Virus record (IMG/VR): IMGVR_UViG_3300017971_000287
Length of the DNA: 64,000 nucleotides
Strand: one strand, 5' to 3'
Source of the DNA: a virus
The position numbers and the translations under genes were made by a program. Shown here piece by piece: positions 1,919 to 28,565 of this stretch; within the stretch, counting starts at the first letter, position 1; every line of letters starts with the position of its first letter. Below the pieces are notes generated by a model. That model did not search any database and had not been told where the DNA came from. It was given only the letters and a program-made list of their open reading frames with translations.

Positions 1919-2401
1919 ATGGGTAGTGCCCCTACAGCCGCAGCCAGTCGACGGACACCAGCTGGTATTCCGTTACCAGACGGGTATCAAACAACCGTAC
2001 AGATCCATGCTGATCCCGATATTTCATTTTGGGAAAGGTCTGTTACTCCTCCAGGAATTGACGGAGGAGATGAAGTGGAACTCACTACACAGCATAACAG
2101 CACTTGGAGAACCCTAGCGTCAAGGTCATTAGCCACCCTGACAGAAATGGTTTTGTCGGGTACTTATGACCCAGATGTGTATGATGAGATTTTGGCTATC
2201 ATTAACTACGAAACAACCATCACCGTGTTTTTCCCAGATGGAAGCACGCTGGCTTTTTACGGGTTTGTAAAACGGTTTACCCCAGGTGAGCTTGTAGAGG
2301 GTGTTCCTCCAGAGTGTTCTGTGGTAATCGTGCCTACTAACCGTGACCCGGCTGATGGAACCGAGCAAGCCCCTGTGATGACGGAAGTTGCTGGAACGTA
2401 G
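1919..2401 (+). CDS. Major tail tube protein
   Basis: 160 aa, AAGGAG SD, TPPGIDGGD and FPDGSTLAFYGFV motifs, position before chaperone and tape measure. Confidence 0.7.
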   Translation: MGSAPTAAASRRTPAGIPLPDGYQTTVQIHADPDISFWERSVTPPGIDGGDEVELTTQHNSTWRTLASRSLATLTEMVLSGTYDPDVYDEILAIINYETTITVFFPDGSTLAFYGFVKRFTPGELVEGVPPECSVVIVPTNRDPADGTEQAPVMTEVAGT

Positions 2402-2489: not shown

Positions 2490-2948
2490 GTGGAACCAGA
2501 AGTACTAGTTTTTGCCGATCTGGATTTGATTGAAATCCCTGTTGAAATAGGCGATAAGCGATACATACTACGTGAAGCCAATGGGGTAGTGGCTTGCAAA
2601 TATCGGAATGCTATCCTCGCTTGTGCGAAAATGGAAGGCGGAAAAGCAGCAGGTTTTGAAGGTCTTGCAGATGTAGAAGTTTTGCTGGTTTCCCTTTGTC
2701 TTTTTCGAGTACAAGAGGATGGATCAACAACACCTATCGCTATTAAAGACGTGCAGGGTTGGCCTAACCGTGTCGTTAAGACTCTTTTTACTAAGGCCCA
2801 AGAAATAAGTGAGCTGCAAGAAGGAGAAGACACAGAAGAGAGTCTTACCAAAGATATAACCGCCATGCAAAAGAAACTGAAGGCCCTTCAAGAAGGTAAT
2901 TCTCCGGTAAAAAACGTGCCAGAGTCTACGGTGGTTGGATCAACTTAG
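2490..2948 (+). CDS. Tail assembly chaperone (gpG-like)
   Basis: GTG start at 2490 after GGAG; between tail tube and tape measure; slippery heptamer near the 3' end. Confidence 0.7.
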   Translation: MEPEVLVFADLDLIEIPVEIGDKRYILREANGVVACKYRNAILACAKMEGGKAAGFEGLADVEVLLVSLCLFRVQEDGSTTPIAIKDVQGWPNRVVKTLFTKAQEISELQEGEDTEESLTKDITAMQKKLKALQEGNSPVKNVPESTVVGST

Positions 2949-3151
2949 CTGTAGAGCTTGGTGTTCCTCTAAGCGAATGTTTACAGGCACACACTCATAG
3001 AGAGTATCTTACCATTGTAGAGCACTTCAAGCCTAAGAAGACAAAACCGACCAAGCAAAGTATTGAAATGTCAAAGAGCCGTTGGGCTTTTGCCGTCGGT
3101 TTGAAAACATTCAAAAAGAATAAGAAGCATGGCCGCAGCAGAAGAAATTGA
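2909..3151 (+). CDS. -1 frameshift extension of the tail assembly chaperone (gpGT-like)
   Basis: A AAA AAC heptamer at 2909-2915 in the chaperone frame; -1 frame is open from 2915 to TGA 3149-3151 (RARVYGGWINLAVELGVPLSECL...), filling the gap to the tape measure gene. Confidence 0.7.
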   Translation, partial: KKRARVYGGWINLAVELGVPLSECLQAHTHREYLTIVEHFKPKKTKPTKQSIEMSKSRWAFAVGLKTFKKNKKHGRSRRN

Positions 3152-5468
3152 AAAGCTAGTTATTCGCCTGACTGGTCGCGGTGACGAGTATCGTAAGATG
3201 CTTGAACAAGCAACGAAGGATACTAATACCTACCTTGACCGAATGGGGCGTCTTCATGACCGGGCAACAGGCAAGTACGTTAAAGCCCATCAGACTGCCT
3301 CTCTAATTATTGGCCGGTCAATGCAAAAGCTGGGCCAAGAGATGACTAGGCTTGGCCGGACCTTATCATTACGTCTTACTGCTCCCTTAACTATTCTTGG
3401 CGGACTGGCTGTTAGGTCGTTTGCTCAGTTTGATAAAGCAATGACAGAAAGCATTGCTATCATGGACGTGACTAACGCGCAAATAGACCGAATGCGTCAA
3501 CTCTCTTTAGATTTGTCTACAGAGGCAGTCCAAGGACCAAAAGAACTAGCCCGTGCTTACTTCTACTTAGCTTCAGCTGGAAAAGATGCTGAGCAATCTA
3601 TGGCTCTACTACCTCAGGTCATTAAGTTTGCTACGGCTGGTGCTTTTGACATGGCCAAAGCAACAGACTTGCTTACAGACGCACAAAGTGCTTTGGGTTT
3701 AACTATGGAGGATGCCTATGAAGACGCTCAGAGCATGGCACGAGTGTCTGATGTTCTTGTAAAAGCAAACACGTTAGCTAACGCAACTGTGGAACAATTT
3801 TCTACTGCACTAACCAGTAAGGCTGGTGCTGCCTTGAAAGCGTACAACAAGGATGTTGAAGAAGGTGTTGCAGTTTTAGCAGCATTAGCAGACCAGGGTG
3901 TAAAAGCAGAATTGGCTGGTAACTCTCTAGATCGTTTTTTGAGGTTGCTGTCCAAAACAACTCTTGATAATGCGGCAGCCCACAGAGAATTAGGGTTTGA
4001 AGTATTTGACTCTACTGGTAAAATGCACAACTTTGCCGACATTGTAGGCAACCTAGAAACTATTTTGGCAGGAATGTCTGACCAGCAAAAGGTAGTTACT
4101 CTTGACATGTTAGGTTTTCAAGCAAGAGTACAACAGGTAATTTTGCCTTTGATAGGTACTTCTAACGCTATCAGAGAGTATGAAAGTGAACTGCGTTCTG
4201 CAGGAGGTACAACAAACCATGTTGCTGAAGTGCAGATGCAATCCTTCAGTAATCGAATGGCGCAAGTACGCAACAAACTTAGTGTGGTTGCTATTGACAT
4301 TGGAGAGCGGTTAGTTCCTACCATTGAGTTATTGACAAACAAGTTAGTAGCTGCTACAGAATGGTGGAACCGGCTTGATAATGGCACGAAAGACATTATT
4401 ATTACAGCGGCCCTTGTAGTAGGTGCGTTAGGACCGTTGACGATTGCACTTGGAACCGTAACTTCAATGCTCGGAACAGCAGTTGCTCTGTCTGGTTCTT
4501 TTACGGTGGTAGCCCAAACGTTGGCCGTTGTTGGGGTCGGTGCTCTGGCCGCTGCTCTTTGGAGGAGTGTGAGTGGTATTTCAGAACTGAATGCTGAAAT
4601 GGCAAGAAGCAAAAAACTTAGTGAAGCGTTGTTGGGTATCTGGGGCACCCGCCAACAAAAGTTTATTGCGGGAGCCATGCAAGAGACTGATCTAAGTAAG
4701 CGGGGCAAGATTCTTGAACAAGAAACGAGTGCAACTACTAGAGACATCTCTGCAAAAGAACAAAGCATTCAAAAGATTCTACGTAAGGGAGACAAGCGGG
4801 GAGAAAAGTACACAGGAAAAGAGTCAGACAAGCGTTTAGGGTTTGCTCTTACTGAACAAGACATTGCAAAGTTACGGGAATTACAAAAGCAACAAAAAAA
4901 GCTAGTAGAGTACCGTAAAGACTTGAACGATGCTCTTGAAAGGACAAACAAAGCCAAAGAACGTGAAAACATTTTTGAACAGACATTAGCTGCTTCAGAA
5001 CAAAAGAGGAAAGAGAAGCTAGAAGAGTTAATGAGTACTCAGCAAAAACTAATGGACAACGTGACAAAACAAAAGACAGAAAAGTCCATCCAAGAATTAG
5101 CACTAGAACAAGTAGAAGCCAGAGCAAAACAAGAAGCAGTGCAACAAGAGGTAGAAAGACTCAATTCAATTTGGGCTTTTCAAGAGCAGGAACGACAACT
5201 CATCCCAAAGATCAACGCAAGAATTCCCAAGCCAGGCAGCCAGTGGATGCAGGACATTCCCAAAGGAGCAACTGGAGACCCAATTAACGCTGCTCCTCAA
5301 TTTGCTCCAATCCCCCGCCCTGATTCTATGCCTAAGCCTTTGTCGCCTGGGCAAGCCTTTGAACAATCTATCGCTAATGCACCAAAGGGAGTAATGGTTC
5401 TGGAAGAAATTTTGGAAGAGATGCGTGCTCAACGTAGTGATATTGAAGCTGTAACGTTGGGAGAGTAG
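3129..5468 (+). CDS. Tail tape measure protein (TP901-family core)
   Basis: 779 aa, Ala-rich helical; FDKAM..., ATAGAFDMAKATDLL, LADQGVKAELAG, TM-like middle segment, coiled-coil C-terminus. Confidence 0.92.
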   Translation: MAAAEEIEKLVIRLTGRGDEYRKMLEQATKDTNTYLDRMGRLHDRATGKYVKAHQTASLIIGRSMQKLGQEMTRLGRTLSLRLTAPLTILGGLAVRSFAQFDKAMTESIAIMDVTNAQIDRMRQLSLDLSTEAVQGPKELARAYFYLASAGKDAEQSMALLPQVIKFATAGAFDMAKATDLLTDAQSALGLTMEDAYEDAQSMARVSDVLVKANTLANATVEQFSTALTSKAGAALKAYNKDVEEGVAVLAALADQGVKAELAGNSLDRFLRLLSKTTLDNAAAHRELGFEVFDSTGKMHNFADIVGNLETILAGMSDQQKVVTLDMLGFQARVQQVILPLIGTSNAIREYESELRSAGGTTNHVAEVQMQSFSNRMAQVRNKLSVVAIDIGERLVPTIELLTNKLVAATEWWNRLDNGTKDIIITAALVVGALGPLTIALGTVTSMLGTAVALSGSFTVVAQTLAVVGVGALAAALWRSVSGISELNAEMARSKKLSEALLGIWGTRQQKFIAGAMQETDLSKRGKILEQETSATTRDISAKEQSIQKILRKGDKRGEKYTGKESDKRLGFALTEQDIAKLRELQKQQKKLVEYRKDLNDALERTNKAKERENIFEQTLAASEQKRKEKLEELMSTQQKLMDNVTKQKTEKSIQELALEQVEARAKQEAVQQEVERLNSIWAFQEQERQLIPKINARIPKPGSQWMQDIPKGATGDPINAAPQFAPIPRPDSMPKPLSPGQAFEQSIANAPKGVMVLEEILEEMRAQRSDIEAVTLGE

Positions 5469-20984: not shown

Positions 20985-22553
20985 TTACGCTTTTTTCTTG
21001 GGACCAACGTAAGTGAGAGTGTGCTTTGCCCGCGTAACAGCAACGTAGTACAAATTGTACTCCTGTTCTTTTTGCCACGCTGTTCGGGCCATAGGGTGTG
21101 GAAGCAGAGAGGGGTCCAAGATAAAAACGTTGTCTGCTTCCAATCCTTTGGCTTTGTGAATACTGCTAAGCTTAATGCCGGTTGTCTCTTCGTCCGTGAA
21201 GATTTTATCAATTCGTTTAATGACCTCTTCTGGCGTAGCAGCGTCTTCTATGAAAGCCATGATACAAGAGTGACGATCTTGAAGAGCAATGATCCGATTT
21301 TCGTTTGGAACCGGACGAGTACCTTCACGTGTCGTCTCTAAGGAAAGCCAGGAGTCAAGCTTCTCTTGTAGGTCAGTTATGGAAGCTGGTTTCAGTCGTT
21401 TAATAAGACCGCTGAGACGAGTGCCTATGTCTTGGCCTTGAATGACAGCCTTACGTCCTTCTTTCAGAAACTGAAAGCACTGCGAAACAAGAGGAGCATT
21501 GGTTCTGCAAAGAAGCATATCACCATCTGCTATGGATGTTTTATACGCACGAAAACTGATCGTTTGAACTGCCCCATTAGGGTTGCTCTCATGGGCTTGG
21601 TAGTCAGGAACGAACTGTTGAGCTTCTGCCACAACAGACTTAGCGCACCGATAGGTGATCGTCAACGGTAAAGAGACACAGCCTGCTGGCATTTCTGAGA
21701 GTAAACGGTGCATTCGTGGCATACTTTCACAGTCTGCTCCTGCAAAACCAAAGATGGCCTGCTTTGGATCACCGCAAAGCACAAGACGTTTACCAGCCCG
21801 TAGCATGAGTTCCTGTTGGGCCCGGTTAAGGTCCTGTGCTTCATCCACAAACAACAGGTCATAACAAAACAAGGGAAGGTTCAGAACAACAGGAAGCCAA
21901 ACCATGTCAGCATAATCAAAACGTCCATCCTGTTGTACGTCCTTTGTTCTTTCCAGGACACGAGGCACTAGGTCCAGGATTGTTTCGAGACGATTACCAA
22001 GGTCTACATCATAGTGCGAAGCAAGACTGACTAGACTTGTAGGCCAATCCTTTTCATGTGGGATGTGTCCTGTAAGAGTCATCTTACAAAGATCAACCAA
22101 ACGACACGTTGCGGAAAGCATTTCCCGCTCTTTACTGCGTAGCTGCCAAATGTCTCTATTGAGGAGCTCAGCAATGATCTCTTCAGTACGTTTGCCGTTG
22201 ACAATATTCCGCCCTTTGAGACCAAAGTGTTTAGTGATAGCTTTGAATCCCATTGAGTGAGCGGTCATTGTAGTGCAGCCGGGTGGAACCCGTTTTTGTA
22301 ATTCTGTTTGAATCGCTTTACTGAAAGCGACACAACAAACAGAGCGAGGATTCTTGGATAGTGCGATAGCATCCCAAATAGCCCTCTGTTGAGAACTGGG
22401 ACTGATTGAAGAAGAGAAGCCCATTAGATTTTTGACTCCCTCAACAATAGTAGTTGTCTTACCCGTTCCAGCAAGAGCAAAAATCATTAGGTGAGGGGCC
22501 GTCTTTTTGGTCTTTCGTTTTCTTTGTCGTGTAATGGATTGACTTAGACTCAT
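20985..22553 (-). CDS. Superfamily 1 (UvrD/Rep-like) DNA helicase
   Basis: ALAGTGKTT, LFVDEAQD, CGDPKQAIFGF, TYRC, SIHKAKGLE, YVAVTRAK. Confidence 0.92.
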   Translation of the reverse strand: MSLSQSITRQRKRKTKKTAPHLMIFALAGTGKTTTIVEGVKNLMGFSSSISPSSQQRAIWDAIALSKNPRSVCCVAFSKAIQTELQKRVPPGCTTMTAHSMGFKAITKHFGLKGRNIVNGKRTEEIIAELLNRDIWQLRSKEREMLSATCRLVDLCKMTLTGHIPHEKDWPTSLVSLASHYDVDLGNRLETILDLVPRVLERTKDVQQDGRFDYADMVWLPVVLNLPLFCYDLLFVDEAQDLNRAQQELMLRAGKRLVLCGDPKQAIFGFAGADCESMPRMHRLLSEMPAGCVSLPLTITYRCAKSVVAEAQQFVPDYQAHESNPNGAVQTISFRAYKTSIADGDMLLCRTNAPLVSQCFQFLKEGRKAVIQGQDIGTRLSGLIKRLKPASITDLQEKLDSWLSLETTREGTRPVPNENRIIALQDRHSCIMAFIEDAATPEEVIKRIDKIFTDEETTGIKLSSIHKAKGLEADNVFILDPSLLPHPMARTAWQKEQEYNLYYVAVTRAKHTLTYVGPKKKA

Positions 22554-22640: not shown

Positions 22641-22877
22641 TCAACGAGTCATTCGGTGAAAGAGAAGTATAACAAGCCCTACAAGAGCCATGGGAAGTAC
22701 CACTTTATACCACGACACTTCTGTGAAGTAGATTAAGTAACCAAACCCTGCTCCAAGTATTCCTCCCAGTATAGTAAAGCTAATAACCGTGCCAAGGACA
22801 TCGAGATCATGCGGGCTGAGTCTCTGTCTCTTATGACGGTCTTTCTCGTTAGTCTGTTTCATCGTTTTATTCTCCAT
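22641..22877 (-). CDS. Small membrane protein (2 TM)
   Basis: Two hydrophobic segments in 78 aa; overlaps the upstream stop. Confidence 0.6.
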   Translation of the reverse strand: MENKTMKQTNEKDRHKRQRLSPHDLDVLGTVISFTILGGILGAGFGYLIYFTEVSWYKVVLPMALVGLVILLFHRMTR

Positions 22878-23449
22878 ATCAGAAGGCCACCGACGATCAG
22901 CATCATGAGCGTGCTTGGCTCAGGTACTACGGTCATCACGGTTACGTTGTCGATACCCCATCGAGCACTACCTCCATTAAAGTCAAGACGATACCATTCT
23001 TCGTGCCCTGAGAGTTGCGTAGACATACGATACACGCGGTCACCTTCAGAGTAGCCTAACGTGTTTCGCTCGACTAGCTTTCCTGAACCGATAGCATCGA
23101 GTAGGTGATTACCAAGAAACACTTGAGTTCGGTCATTGCTAGGGGTGTACTGCGACATGGTCCAGGCCTGCCCTTTCGGCCAAGAACCGATAGCGTACAC
23201 GTCCCAGGAGATTAGGACGTAGTGCCAATAGTCGGGCATCTGAATTGTGAGAGATGTTTGCCCTAGTGGTCCCAAGAACTTTTCGCCCTTTGGAGCAGTA
23301 GTGATCTTGTTGCTAGACCACTGTAATCGTTTGCCTTGTTGGAAGTTGTCGGTGATCGTTTCTCCTTTGCTGAGGCTGCTAAGAAAAACGAACACAAGGA
23401 ATCCTACAAGAGTACTCAAGACGATCCAGTGTATGGTGTTACGGTTCAT
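22859..23449 (-). CDS. Secreted PEP-CTERM-sorted surface protein
   Basis: N-terminal hydrophobic signal segment; C-terminus VVPEPSTLMMLIVGGLLIWRIKR = PEP motif + TM + basic tail. Confidence 0.85.
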   Translation of the reverse strand: MNRNTIHWIVLSTLVGFLVFVFLSSLSKGETITDNFQQGKRLQWSSNKITTAPKGEKFLGPLGQTSLTIQMPDYWHYVLISWDVYAIGSWPKGQAWTMSQYTPSNDRTQVFLGNHLLDAIGSGKLVERNTLGYSEGDRVYRMSTQLSGHEEWYRLDFNGGSARWGIDNVTVMTVVPEPSTLMMLIVGGLLIWRIKR

Positions 23450-24975: not shown

Positions 24976-25812
24976 CTACCGTTCGTCACGTTCATGAAGC
25001 TTTTGTAGTTCATCTCGCACAACATTGAATGCCCCGTCAAACGTGTAGACTCCAGCAGAAAAAACACGTAGCTCATCGGGAGTTATGTGATCTAAGTCTG
25101 TAGCGTTACTAAGGTAGACTGGCCCTAGACCTAGTGCTGGTTTTTCACCCTGGTCTCTACAGATAGTGCGAAGTAGACAAAAGGTGAAAGTGCGGTAGAA
25201 CCAACCTGCTACCGTGTTAATCAGCGTAGAAACGTCAAGAGGGTCACTGCATCTTTTCAGACAGCAAGCAGTCATAACTGGGGTCCTGTTTCTTTGGTAA
25301 AGCCTAGTGCCGTTTGTAACCCATATCTCGGTGACGTATCCTTTCTCTTCAAGAATCTTGGCGAGAGCAAGAGCGGCAGCACCCCGCCAGAGGATGTCAT
25401 GACTGCTTCGGTATGCTTCGGTAGAAGTGTCAATCACGATAGTGACTTCAGTGGGCCCTTCTGTGACTTCTCTTTCCACGGTTCGCCAGTAGGGTTGACC
25501 AGCCCGCAGCCGGTCATAGTCGATTTCATCACCTTGGTCTTCAGAGAACCGCACTTGGCGTTTGTGCGATTTTAGTTCGGGCAACCGCTCTTTCAAGAGA
25601 CGGTCTGTGTATTGTTGAAGGACACACATGCCTTCTGCCCAATCTCGTTTGGAACGTTTCTCAGCAGACTTAAATGTTGGAAGCCGCTCACCGACAAATC
25701 CCGCTGATTTGGTGTCTACGGAATAGAATCGTTGATCGGAATACTCGATGACTTCCGTCATTGAGTCGAACAAGAAAATCTCATGGTCCTCATTGGTCGT
25801 AATGTGTCTCAT
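24976..25812 (-). CDS. vWA-like partner of a MoxR-type AAA+ ATPase (CobT-like)
   Basis: GDEIDYDRL..GQPYW, VTIVIDTS (MIDAS-like), RGAAALALAKILEEKGY; directly downstream of the ATPase. Confidence 0.65.
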   Translation of the reverse strand: MRHITTNEDHEIFLFDSMTEVIEYSDQRFYSVDTKSAGFVGERLPTFKSAEKRSKRDWAEGMCVLQQYTDRLLKERLPELKSHKRQVRFSEDQGDEIDYDRLRAGQPYWRTVEREVTEGPTEVTIVIDTSTEAYRSSHDILWRGAAALALAKILEEKGYVTEIWVTNGTRLYQRNRTPVMTACCLKRCSDPLDVSTLINTVAGWFYRTFTFCLLRTICRDQGEKPALGLGPVYLSNATDLDHITPDELRVFSAGVYTFDGAFNVVRDELQKLHERDER

Positions 25813-25828
25813 GATTGTGACCTTTCGG

Positions 25829-27076
25829 TTAGGGAGTATAGCTTTTGACTTTGTTTACTTCATCTTCACGCCAGCCCATGAACAACGCTTCTTCTACCTC
25901 TTCCATGGTAAAGGGTTCATGGTCTCTCCCATAGTCTTTTGGGTAGAGCATCTCATGAGCGTCACGCATGAACCGAGTGCTGATTGCTCTTTCAAGACGG
26001 TGTGCATCCACGGCCTTGCGATAACGTAAAAGTAGAGCACGCAATTCGTCGTCAGGACAGAGGATAGTTTCTACCCGTTCATCATAGTCCATGGCTACTT
26101 TGCCGATATGGAATCGGTCAAGACTTGCGGCATCCAGTTTGTTACGACCGCTGTAAAGACGGTCAGCCCCAGTACCTACCGTGTTGGCGGCAGCGGTGCA
26201 AACAAAATCCGCATGACGTTTGGCGTAAGGTTTCTTAGGACGGTTTGACACAGCCACTTGCCCATTAGCCAAGGCCGCATTTATGAAAAGCAGCACGTTA
26301 CTGTCTGCGGCATCAATCTCATCCAGAAGGAACACGCCACCGTTTTCATAACACTTTATGAACTCACTAACCCCGTAGTTGAATTGTCCGTTCCTTCCGG
26401 TAGGCAACAGACGACCGCCCAATACACCCTCTGACATTCCGCTGGTGCAAGAGACAAACGCAAAAGGCAGACCCAAAGCAGTGGCTACTTGTTCACACAG
26501 ATGAGACTTACCGCAGCCAGTGGGACCGTACACGAATATGTTTTTGCGGGCCTGAGCAAGTTTCAAAACACGGCGGAACTGAGCGTGGAAAAGGTCCTTC
26601 ATGACCTTTGCTTTTTTGGTTCCAGGTTTCTTGATTCGCACTTCCACAACGTTCATAGAGGCTTTCTTGACTTCTTCGCGTGCTTTGTCACGTTCCTTCT
26701 CAGCTGTCTCTGCTTGCTTTTTAGAGACACCGATCTGGTGTTGAAGTTCAGCGACAGACGCCTTCATTCTTTCTATTTGCAGTCGCCACTGCTCTTGGGT
26801 TCGGTTGTGAGTCCTTTCATCTGACCCATCTTGCTGGTCTCGGGAGGTCTTATGACCAAACCGGCCCGGTTCTCCACGAAGCCTGCCTACGCCACAAATC
26901 AGACCCACTTCATGCATCGTGAGAATAATGGTAGCGATTCTACTCGTATTACTAGTGGAGATATAACGTCTCACTTCTTCTATCAACCGGAGTTTGGTCC
27001 AGTAACGGTTTGGTTTCTCAGCAAGAATCCGAAGCACAGTTAGTACTACAGCACTGTAATCAAACTTTCTAGCCAT
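25829..27076 (-). CDS. MoxR/CbbQ/CobS-like AAA+ ATPase with N-terminal wHTH-like and coiled-coil regions
   Basis: YGPTGCGKS (Walker A), FLLDEIDAAD (Walker B), AAANTVGTG, LDAASLDRF. Confidence 0.88.
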   Translation of the reverse strand: MARKFDYSAVVLTVLRILAEKPNRYWTKLRLIEEVRRYISTSNTSRIATIILTMHEVGLICGVGRLRGEPGRFGHKTSRDQQDGSDERTHNRTQEQWRLQIERMKASVAELQHQIGVSKKQAETAEKERDKAREEVKKASMNVVEVRIKKPGTKKAKVMKDLFHAQFRRVLKLAQARKNIFVYGPTGCGKSHLCEQVATALGLPFAFVSCTSGMSEGVLGGRLLPTGRNGQFNYGVSEFIKCYENGGVFLLDEIDAADSNVLLFINAALANGQVAVSNRPKKPYAKRHADFVCTAAANTVGTGADRLYSGRNKLDAASLDRFHIGKVAMDYDERVETILCPDDELRALLLRYRKAVDAHRLERAISTRFMRDAHEMLYPKDYGRDHEPFTMEEVEEALFMGWREDEVNKVKSYTP

Positions 27077-27146: not shown

Positions 27147-27422
27147 CTATTCATAATCTGTGTCTTCCTCTTCATCATCCTCTTCATCATAGGGATCATC
27201 CTCTTCATCATAGGGATCAAACGGTTCGCCCTCTTCGTCCATCCATTCAGTGAGGGCGTCGCCATTGTCCCACTCTTTTATCATGGTACACCCACAATCA
27301 CACTCCCAAGTAAGTACGATACCACTATCTGTGATGTCTATTTCATCGGGGCTTCCAAGAGAGGCATCGCAACGAGGACAAGCACTAGACAAAACCGCTT
27401 CCGTTAGGTAAGTACCACTCAT
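27147..27422 (-). CDS. Small Zn-ribbon protein with highly acidic C-terminus
   Basis: CPRC...CDCGC then DPYDEEDDPYDEEDDEEEDTDYE (21-bp tandem duplication in the DNA); start ATG 27422. Confidence 0.65.
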   Translation of the reverse strand: MSGTYLTEAVLSSACPRCDASLGSPDEIDITDSGIVLTWECDCGCTMIKEWDNGDALTEWMDEEGEPFDPYDEEDDPYDEEDDEEEDTDYE

Positions 27423-27844
27423 TTCGCACCTCCCTTCCGCCGATGCTCGGCACAAACGACACGGCCAGTACCCCGAATCAACTGCCCGTCAATTCCGTTC
27501 TCTTTACAGACTCCGCAAATCACTTCCCCTGCCCAACACGATCCGCAGTACATACAATCCGGGTGCGTCTTGGGTTCTCGGCAGCGACACTTCTTTTTTG
27601 CCGTCTGCTTCTTCGCTGGCTTCTGAGGTTTCTGGTTACGGCGGAAGTCATCGCCATCAGTTTCATCAAACACTTCCCATTTGTCGCCGAACCAACCGTA
27701 TTGCTCCACTAGTAGACACACATCGTTGTCGAAGAGCACAAGGGCTTCACCGTCTTGCATAATCGTGTCTACGATCTTGGCATTCGGTTGTCCCATCTCT
27801 TCGCGCATGTAACGGACAGCTTCGGTTCGCATTGTGTTACTCAT
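27419..27844 (-). CDS. First gene of the leftward operon; Cys-rich C-terminal Zn-finger-like domain
   Basis: GGAG SD before ATG 27844; CRC...CMYCGSC...ICGVC...CAEH. Confidence 0.65.
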   Translation of the reverse strand: MSNTMRTEAVRYMREEMGQPNAKIVDTIMQDGEALVLFDNDVCLLVEQYGWFGDKWEVFDETDGDDFRRNQKPQKPAKKQTAKKKCRCREPKTHPDCMYCGSCWAGEVICGVCKENGIDGQLIRGTGRVVCAEHRRKGGAK

Positions 27845-27859
27845 CGTACTTCTCCAAAA

Positions 27860-27912
27860 AGGGTTTCGTAAAGGTAACTCATCAGAGCGGGGTACCAATC
27901 CCCGCTGACCCT
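27860..27912 (-). ncRNA. Type III hammerhead ribozyme
   Basis: Minus-strand RNA AGGGUC^AGCGGGG-AUUGGUA-CCCCGCU-CUGAUGA-GU-UACCUUU-AC-GAAA-CCCU: intact CUGAUGA and GAAA core, GUC cleavage triplet, 7-bp stem I, short stem II, 5-bp stem III, loop I GGUA complementary to loop II UACC. Confidence 0.85.
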
Positions 27913-27962
27913 GCGATTGTCTCGGCTACCTTTGGTAGGGCATGCGGAGACAATCGTTGAGT

Positions 27963-28098: not shown

Positions 28099-28325
28099 TA
28101 AAAGCCAGACCGTTATCGTCTAACTTTTCGTTTCTTCTTTCCCGTTCTCTTTAGAGAGCTAAGGGGGTTGCGTCTGGCGTTTTTGTCTTCTTACAGGGTA
28201 CTAGGTCGGTCAACCTGTTTTCGCCTGTCGCGGGTCCAAAAACGTTCCCTTCTTCCGCAAGCCGTTCAAGTTATCAAAGAGCGTAATTCAACTACGTATA
28301 ATATAAGGTATTATCGGGACAGAGT

Positions 28326-28407
28326 AAATAGGCGGGGGGGCCTATTTCCGAGTTTTTTTGGAAATAATCGGGGGCGATTATATAAACCCTTATAGGATAA
28401 GGGTTTA
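28326..28407. repeat. Cluster of back-to-back short palindromes
   Basis: AAATAGGC/GCCTATTT, TTTCC/GGAAA, ATAATCG/CGATTAT, TAAACCCTTA/TAAGGGTTTA, followed by T-tracts. Confidence 0.7.
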
Positions 28408-28509: not shown

Positions 28510-28565
28510 AAAAAGGCGGGTATTCCCGGCAAAAGAGGATTGATCCAGGAATACCCGCCCAAAAA
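28510..28565 (-). terminator. Rho-independent terminator downstream of the ParB-like gene
   Basis: 12-bp stem GGCGGGTATTCC (28515-28526) / GGAATACCCGCC (28548-28559) flanked by A5 runs, giving a U tail on the minus strand. Confidence 0.75.

Follow-up and report, generated by a model that had tools for sequence, protein, structure and literature searches.

Stem II of hammerhead ribozymes often has two base pairs, and loop-loop pseudoknots, which are needed for fast cleavage, are found in approximately 40% of hammerheads, in all three types (PMC3088659). In the haloviruses HF1 and HF2, the hammerhead HHphage lies 13 nucleotides (nts) upstream of the ORF that comes first in an early polycistronic transcript related to replication, and the mapped 5′ end of this transcript is within 3 nt of the hammerhead cut (PMC3088659). 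Hammerheads of prophages are clustered and flank genes, and their intercistronic placement suggests that long transcripts are processed into gene-length mRNAs (PMC3088659, Figure 3). The function of bacterial and phage hammerheads is still considered unsettled in a 2019 review (PMC6765202).

The window analyzed here is a stretch of viral DNA of 64,000 nts within an approximately 68.7-kb phage contig from a metagenome, and its minus strand carries, at 27860-27912, what is very probably a hammerhead under selection. The sequence from 27912 to 27860 reads AGGGUC/AGCGGGG-AUUGGUA-CCCCGCU-CUGAUGA-GU-UACCUUU-AC-GAA-ACCCU, where the slash marks the predicted cut. Stem III has 5 bp (27912-27908 with 27864-27860); its 5′ strand runs from A27912 to U27908, and 27864-27860 comprises A15.1 and the 3′ strand, the A15.1-U16.1 pair being A27864-U27908. 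Stem I has 7 bp (27906-27900 with 27892-27886), and stem II has only 2 bp (G27878-C27868 and U27877-A27869). The core consists of CUGAUGA at 27885-27879 and GAA at 27867-27865, with C3, U4, G5, A6, N7, G8 and A9 as well as G12, A13 and A14 all present. Stems I and II are capped by loops and both the 5′ and 3′ ends lie in stem III, which is the type III topology. A sequence-only reading of this locus had reported a complete type III core on this strand, and every nucleotide and coordinate that it gave proved correct when compared with the sequence. The GUC site has C17, a non-G nucleotide, at 27907, and cleavage is predicted between 27907 and 27906, as that reading had placed it. Loop I (AUUGGUA, 7 nt, 27893-27899) and loop II (UACCUUU, 7 nt, 27870-27876) are candidates for a pseudoknot, and in the pairing proposed earlier GGUA at 27896-27893 is complementary to UACC at 27876-27873; a corresponding pairing is possible in 14 of the 14 members of the subfamily described below. 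The first gene downstream of the ribozyme has GGAG at 27855-27852 as its Shine-Dalgarno (SD) sequence and its ATG at 27844, 15 nt beyond stem III, so that the leader left after the predicted cut is 62 nt. The location next to the ribosome binding site (RBS) had also been read correctly, and closeness to start codons is conserved among the members. The same gene had been called the first early gene; its position behind the ribozyme and RBS stands, and the word early goes beyond what is seen, which is a gene at the head of a second transcription unit.

When the structure was compared with known hammerheads, it resembled RF00008 in the full core, the A15.1-U16.1 pair, the GUC triplet, the G10.1-C11.1 pair, the open stem III and the loop-closed stems I and II, but it differed from the consensus of this family, which is dominated by viroids and satellites, in the 2-bp stem II and the 7-nt loop I. 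With the pseudoknotted hammerheads having a stem II of 1-2 bp (PMC3088659), it shares the short stem II, the possible loop-loop pairing and the intergenic setting in phages or prophages. Similarly to HHphage, the ribozyme precedes, by the 15 nt between stem III and ATG, the first ORF of an operon that ends in a UvrD-like helicase. However, HHphage has atypical core insertions and a virus of an archaeal halophile as its carrier, whereas the core in the window is canonical. The relatives found in IMG/VR resemble the clustered prophage hammerheads in that 2-4 copies per contig are often present; in contrast, the window has a single copy, which ends a 685-nt non-coding gap rather than a short intercistronic spacer.

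The sequence-only reading had pointed to the Rfam hammerhead models, and RF00008 (Hammerhead_3, clan CL00010) indeed matched a short slice of 221 nt at 30.7 bits (E = 5.2e-5), which is below the gathering score of 48.5 bits, a curation cut-off and not a biological feature. Using Rfam 15 with the whole 64-kb window, nothing was found at the gathering score or in an E-value scan, and an Rfam scan of 58 kb of loci with identical ribozyme copies missed those copies too. The loss of the slice match in whole-window scans indicates that the Rfam filters lose the hammerhead, and, because identical copies were missed, absence in such scans is not evidence of absence. Our own hammerhead descriptor gave a single match in the window, at 27860-27912, while among 1000 second-order Markov windows none contained an equally good match and 3.6% contained any relaxed match. 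The minimum free energy (MFE) fold of the hammerhead was unremarkable against shuffles (z = -0.65); since the thermodynamic fold was no better than that of shuffles, the decisive support is comparative. A covariance model built from the subfamily members (R1) found one copy only within the window, and a leave-one-out covariance model (R2) scored the window at 63 bits (E = 2.4e-15). When Rfam was applied to three subfamily members, two gave no match at E up to 1 and the third (L164) gave a weak type II match.

The first pattern searched in IMG/VR, GUC..CUGAUGAGU..ACGAAAC, was found in at least 120 loci. Among the loci listed there were 140 matches, including the window and identical copies, and 91 of them, in which stem I had 4 bp or more and stem III 3 bp or more, were counted as compact type III hammerheads. 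Most of the compact type III hammerheads listed have a 4-bp stem II, several contigs have more than one, and one (L052) has exactly the unusual build of the window ribozyme. Two loci (L006 and L007) are 100% identical to the window copy and offer no variation to compare. For metagenome and genome collections, a second pattern was used that required CUGAUGAGU, ACGAAAC and a loop I with UUGG but placed no constraint on loop II or the stems. The subfamily found in this way consists of L052 (identical to L148), L170 with two copies, L165, L135/L151, L159, L136, L140/L146/L153, L164, L141 and L143; matches in L060, L099/L101/L120, L134, L169 and L171 had neither stem I nor stem III and were discarded as chance matches to the pattern. 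Taking the pattern scans and the synteny search described below together, 13 further copies with the architecture of the window were obtained, located on unrelated metagenomic or viral contigs and one metagenome-assembled genome (MAG). Judged by these features, the window ribozyme belongs to a compact subfamily of phage hammerheads, whose stem I has 7 bp and stem II 2 bp and whose loops I and II are AUUGG(U/C)A and N(A/G)CC, respectively.

Two side observations were made in these searches. A contig of a Solirubrobacterales MAG (L170) has near-identical subfamily hammerheads at 2943-3004 and 4330-4391, 1.4 kb apart. Each is followed, approximately 110 nt downstream, by one of two paralogous 87-aa ORFs (75% identical), and a cassette of ribozyme and gene has apparently undergone duplication. 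The second pattern also caught a conserved type I hammerhead with stem III of CGCC-GAAA-GGCG (L137-L139, L142, L144, L147, L149, L150, L154-L158, L160, L161, L166-L168 and L172), on contigs labelled mostly as human-gut metagenome and in a Clostridiales genome, which is presumably a known gut phage or prophage family.

We aligned the window with the 13 further copies (alignment A6, 14 sequences). Stem I was 99% paired, and compensatory changes were found in 7 of its 7 pairs and in 4 of the 6 pairs of stem III. The covariation score was reached by none of 500 shuffles, and sliding the partners by 1-3 columns decreased pairing from 91% to 30-53%. The U-A pair corresponding to A15.1-U16.1 was invariant in all 14 sequences, and H17 was C or U. 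Although the G-C and U-A pairs of stem II were invariant as well, they are fixed by the search pattern; because UUGG, CUGAUGAGU and ACGAAAC were all set in the pattern, their invariance and that of stem II are partly by construction. Loop I was AUUGG(U/C)A in 12 of the 14 sequences, GUUGGCA in L052 and UUGGUA in L175. The core of the loop-loop interaction, GG(U/C) with (A/G)CC, can form in every sequence of the alignment, with UUGG of loop I being fixed by the pattern, and CC of loop II, which the pattern does not impose, was invariant (14/14). The flanking loop-loop pair (alignment columns 24-44) was U-A in 11 sequences and C-G in three (L052 and the two L170 copies) and was never unpaired; covariation of the pseudoknot amounts to one column in two lineages. 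The compensatory changes in the stems indicate selection on the fold itself. Comparative analysis of the sequences thus demonstrates a conserved hammerhead fold under selection, placed on the coding strand at a short fixed distance before a start codon.

The first ORF downstream of the ribozyme (27419-27844, minus strand) encodes a Cys-rich protein of 141 aa with no family match. It is followed by a 91-aa ORF, an AAA_5/phrog_249 ATPase (25829-27076), a DUF7192 protein (24976-25812) and further genes on to the UvrD-like helicase (20985-22553), so that two small ORFs lie between the ribozyme and the ATPase and DUF7192 pair. A 196-aa ORF of the operon (22859-23449, minus strand) has a borderline C-terminal PEP-CTERM match (E = 5.6e-4, 20.3 bits against a cut-off of 20.7 bits). 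In L052, a distance of 31 nt separates the ribozyme from the downstream AAA_5/phrog_249 ATPase, which shares 54% identity with the ATPase of the window, and a homologue of DUF7192 is next. IMG/VR was then scanned with an alignment of the ATPase, and the resulting loci were searched with R1. This synteny-guided search gave copies that the patterns had not found, in L179/L180 and in L175, again with the ribozyme ahead of the AAA ATPase/DUF7192 replication module. The L179/L180 copy scored 61.6 bits with R1 and has CUGAAGA as core and UACC in loop II, and in the L175 copy, which scored 33.5 bits, C3 and G8 are replaced by U3 and A8. Three diverged phages (L052, L179/L180 and L175) therefore have the ribozyme ahead of the ATPase module of the window, and the identity of the ATPase among phages retaining the ribozyme is only 41-54%. 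In the L175 copy (2204-2265, plus strand), UUGAAAA replaces CUGAUGA, there is an extra U, and the second pair of stem II is G-A; stems I and III can still form, as can the loop-loop pairing, and U3/A8 is a possible compensatory change in the core. This copy may be either an active core variant or a decaying one.

The ribozyme was absent from other relatives by ATPase (L008-L013, L173, L174 and L176-L178), which are similarly diverged and include the closest ones, indicating that it is dispensable for this type of phage. A tree of the ATPase, drawn for the question of gain versus loss, was poorly resolved and the carriers did not cluster in it. Homologues of the 141-aa protein were found in tightly packed rows of genes having no ribozyme. 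IMG/VR scans with single proteins gave no relatives, and blastn against GenBank phages gave nothing.

The ribozyme module is situated at the end of the 685-nt gap, and the region upstream contains several further elements. A stable hairpin with a 10-bp outer helix and an inner helix (27914-27956, minus strand; MFE -22.6 kcal/mol, z = -6.2) ends 1 nt before stem III. We interpret it as belonging to the minus-strand module; after cleavage it would form the 3′ terminus of the upstream product. The 485-aa gene is followed by a terminator-like hairpin (28510-28561, minus strand), in which a long G+C-rich stem precedes U5 (-43.8 kcal/mol, z = -5.4). A consensus scan gave a sigma-70-like promoter candidate, TTTACT-17-TATATT (28300-28328, minus strand). 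Set off by the terminator-like hairpin and the promoter-like site, the part bearing the ribozyme is probably the second transcription unit. Transcription from the promoter candidate would give a leader of approximately 390 nt, to be removed by cleavage, and no credible ORF was found in the gap, this leader included. The 19-nt motif CTTTGAWAACTTGAACGGC is located just downstream of the promoter-like site (28261-28279, minus strand) and also at 2128-2146 in L175. It occurs once in the window and once in the L175 leader, and among the other fetched loci it was found only in the identical copy L006; it could be a region of transcript start or an operator. Further upstream, a perfect 10-bp inverted repeat, AAACCCTTAT-CCT-ATAAGGGTTT (28384-28406, minus strand), lies directly upstream of a TATAAT-like hexamer (28377-28382) and looks like an operator. 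On the other side of the ribozyme, U5 after stem III was considered as a terminator, and this reading was rejected because U5 is not conserved in the other members.

We compared the genomic context among phage hammerheads. In the subfamily, the orientation of the ribozyme was that of the downstream ORF in every member, and the distance from GAAAC to the start codon was 1-31 nt in 9 of the 11 copies with a downstream ORF, being 110 nt in the two L170 copies. The downstream genes are otherwise unrelated. As a wider set, 104 distinct compact phage type III hammerheads were sampled from the fetched loci. In this set, the next start was a median of 27 nt (quartiles, 23 and 36) downstream of GAAAC, and GUC was a median of 37 nt downstream of the preceding stop. 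In 80 of the 104 (approximately 77%), stem III was preceded by a stable hairpin with a gap of 0 or 1 nt, the gap in the window being 1 nt. The 45 nt directly upstream were strongly structured, with a mean z of -3.2 in the general set and -1.8 in the subfamily, in contrast to a control segment 150 nt further upstream (mean z of -0.4; Mann-Whitney p about 1e-21). The phage contigs of IMG/VR loci L014-L134 (e.g. L117, L115, L092, L110 and L107) are rich in compact type III hammerheads of 45-55 nt; many of these contigs are 55-65 kb, there are often 2-4 copies per locus, and the abutting hairpins are G+C-rich. As a tentative proposal, to which we give somewhat less than even weight, selection may act not on the bare ribozyme but on a punctuation module of three parts that phages use widely, namely the abutting hairpin, the compact hammerhead and an RBS 20-35 nt downstream. 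Such a module would cut transcripts into an upstream RNA, whose end would be protected by the 3′ hairpin and the cyclic phosphate, and a downstream RNA, whose end would be protected by the 5′-OH on the stem I hairpin, and in the window it would have been recruited to the head of the replication operon. If this is true, the abutting hairpin may also be required for folding or cleavage, through coaxial stacking on the weak stem III.

With respect to the function, we consider it likely that the hammerhead is functional, cleaving itself, trimming the leader and insulating or protecting the mRNA of the replication operon; for the processing and insulation role taken by itself, we are only slightly inclined in favor. 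The ribozyme would be co-transcribed with the minus-strand replication operon and would cut itself between C27907 and A27906, with the Watson-Crick pairing of the two loops standing in for a longer stem II. The cut would remove either a long untranslated leader or read-through from the upstream gene. The upstream fragment would then end in the hairpin at 27956-27914 and a short tail with a 2′,3′-cyclic phosphate. Cleavage as predicted gives a 5′-OH and a hairpin-capped leader of 62 nt, so the mRNA of the operon would keep a constant leader with its 5′-OH directly on the stem I hairpin, and both new ends would be shielded from end-dependent RNases. Translation of the first gene would be freed from the influence of upstream sequence, making the element a natural counterpart of ribozyme insulators. 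One of these, RiboJ, is an engineered insulator in which the type III hammerhead of sTRSV is placed before the RBS and an added downstream hairpin exposes the RBS. The analogy concerns the mechanism only, that is, a hammerhead just before the RBS trims a variable leader to a constant 5′ end of the mRNA; the extra hairpin of RiboJ is downstream, whereas that of the window is upstream and abuts stem III. Unmasking of the RBS by cleavage was considered as well and found no support, as the accessibility of the SD sequence calculated by RNAfold was 0.30-0.46 before and 0.46 after the cut, with no clear change. The sequencing runs that contain the window DNA are DNA metagenomes only.

A chance or decayed motif lacking catalytic activity would be compatible with the Rfam score below the gathering score, with a stem II of merely 2 bp and with the thermodynamic z of -0.65, and across many scanned windows an occasional match of about 30 bits is expected by chance. 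Nevertheless, neither the covarying subfamily, nor 63 bits in the leave-one-out model, nor the 0 of 1000 simulations as good as the window is expected from such a motif, and hammerheads with a 1-2 bp stem II and a pseudoknot have published activity (PMC3088659); we regard this explanation as exceedingly improbable. Almost as improbable in our estimation is that cleavage serves to release the leader of approximately 390 nt (28295-27907) as a separate regulatory RNA. The stable hairpin at 27956-27914 would protect the 3′ end of this fragment, which holds no credible ORF and has the 19-nt motif in common with L175. On the other hand, the leaders of the relatives bearing the ribozyme vary from approximately 75 to 500 nt and do not align, the z of the leader fold is only -1.76, the leader matches no Rfam family, and in typical members the upstream partner is the preceding gene, as seen from the median of 37 nt between stop and GUC. 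The sequence-only reading had included release of the upstream leader as a small RNA, and this part is unsupported, the leader not being conserved among relatives with the ribozyme.

In the glmS case, the 5′-OH end marks the RNA for decay by RNase J1 in some hosts. The cut might likewise expose the operon mRNA to a host enzyme of the RNase J type and so limit or time expression of the replication operon, in a manner similar to glmS but constitutive, and this we consider unlikely. The chemistry of cleavage would be the same, close relatives do without the ribozyme, and RNAfold showed no gain in SD accessibility after the cut. However, the 5′ nucleotide is already paired in a G+C-rich hairpin of 7 bp, which should be a poor substrate for a 5′ exonuclease; a short fixed distance before many different genes is more readily explained by a processing element of general use than by a brake on one gene; and the major early transcript of HF1/HF2 is a cleaved RNA (PMC3088659). 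The remaining alternative, a mobile or selfish passenger in which a hairpin-plus-hammerhead cassette spreads among phages with no benefit to the operon, is in our view somewhat less probable again. It would account for the patchy presence among relatives with the ATPase module, for the carriers being unclustered in the poorly resolved tree, for the varying downstream genes, and for the multiple copies, both those 1.4 kb apart in L170 and those on other phage contigs. Against it, the compensatory changes point to selection on the fold, there is tight constraint on the orientation and on the spacing from the next start codon, and the place ahead of the ATPase module is kept in phages that are only 41-54% identical there.

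A short stem II, pseudoknots between loops, and a hammerhead ahead of the early helicase operon of a halovirus had already been described (PMC3088659). What is new here is a further example of a known element, belonging to a subfamily that is missed by standard Rfam annotation. As this subfamily is invisible at the Rfam gathering score, compact pseudoknotted hammerheads of phages are probably under-counted, and the alignment of 14 sequences together with its covariance model could seed a better hammerhead model. The locus offers a clean test case, because its only ribozyme has a canonical core and occupies a conserved site before a recognizable replication module, and because relatives both with and without it are available. 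In addition, the hairpin abutting most of the sampled compact type III hammerheads of phages leads to the testable idea that both cleavage products may be stabilized.
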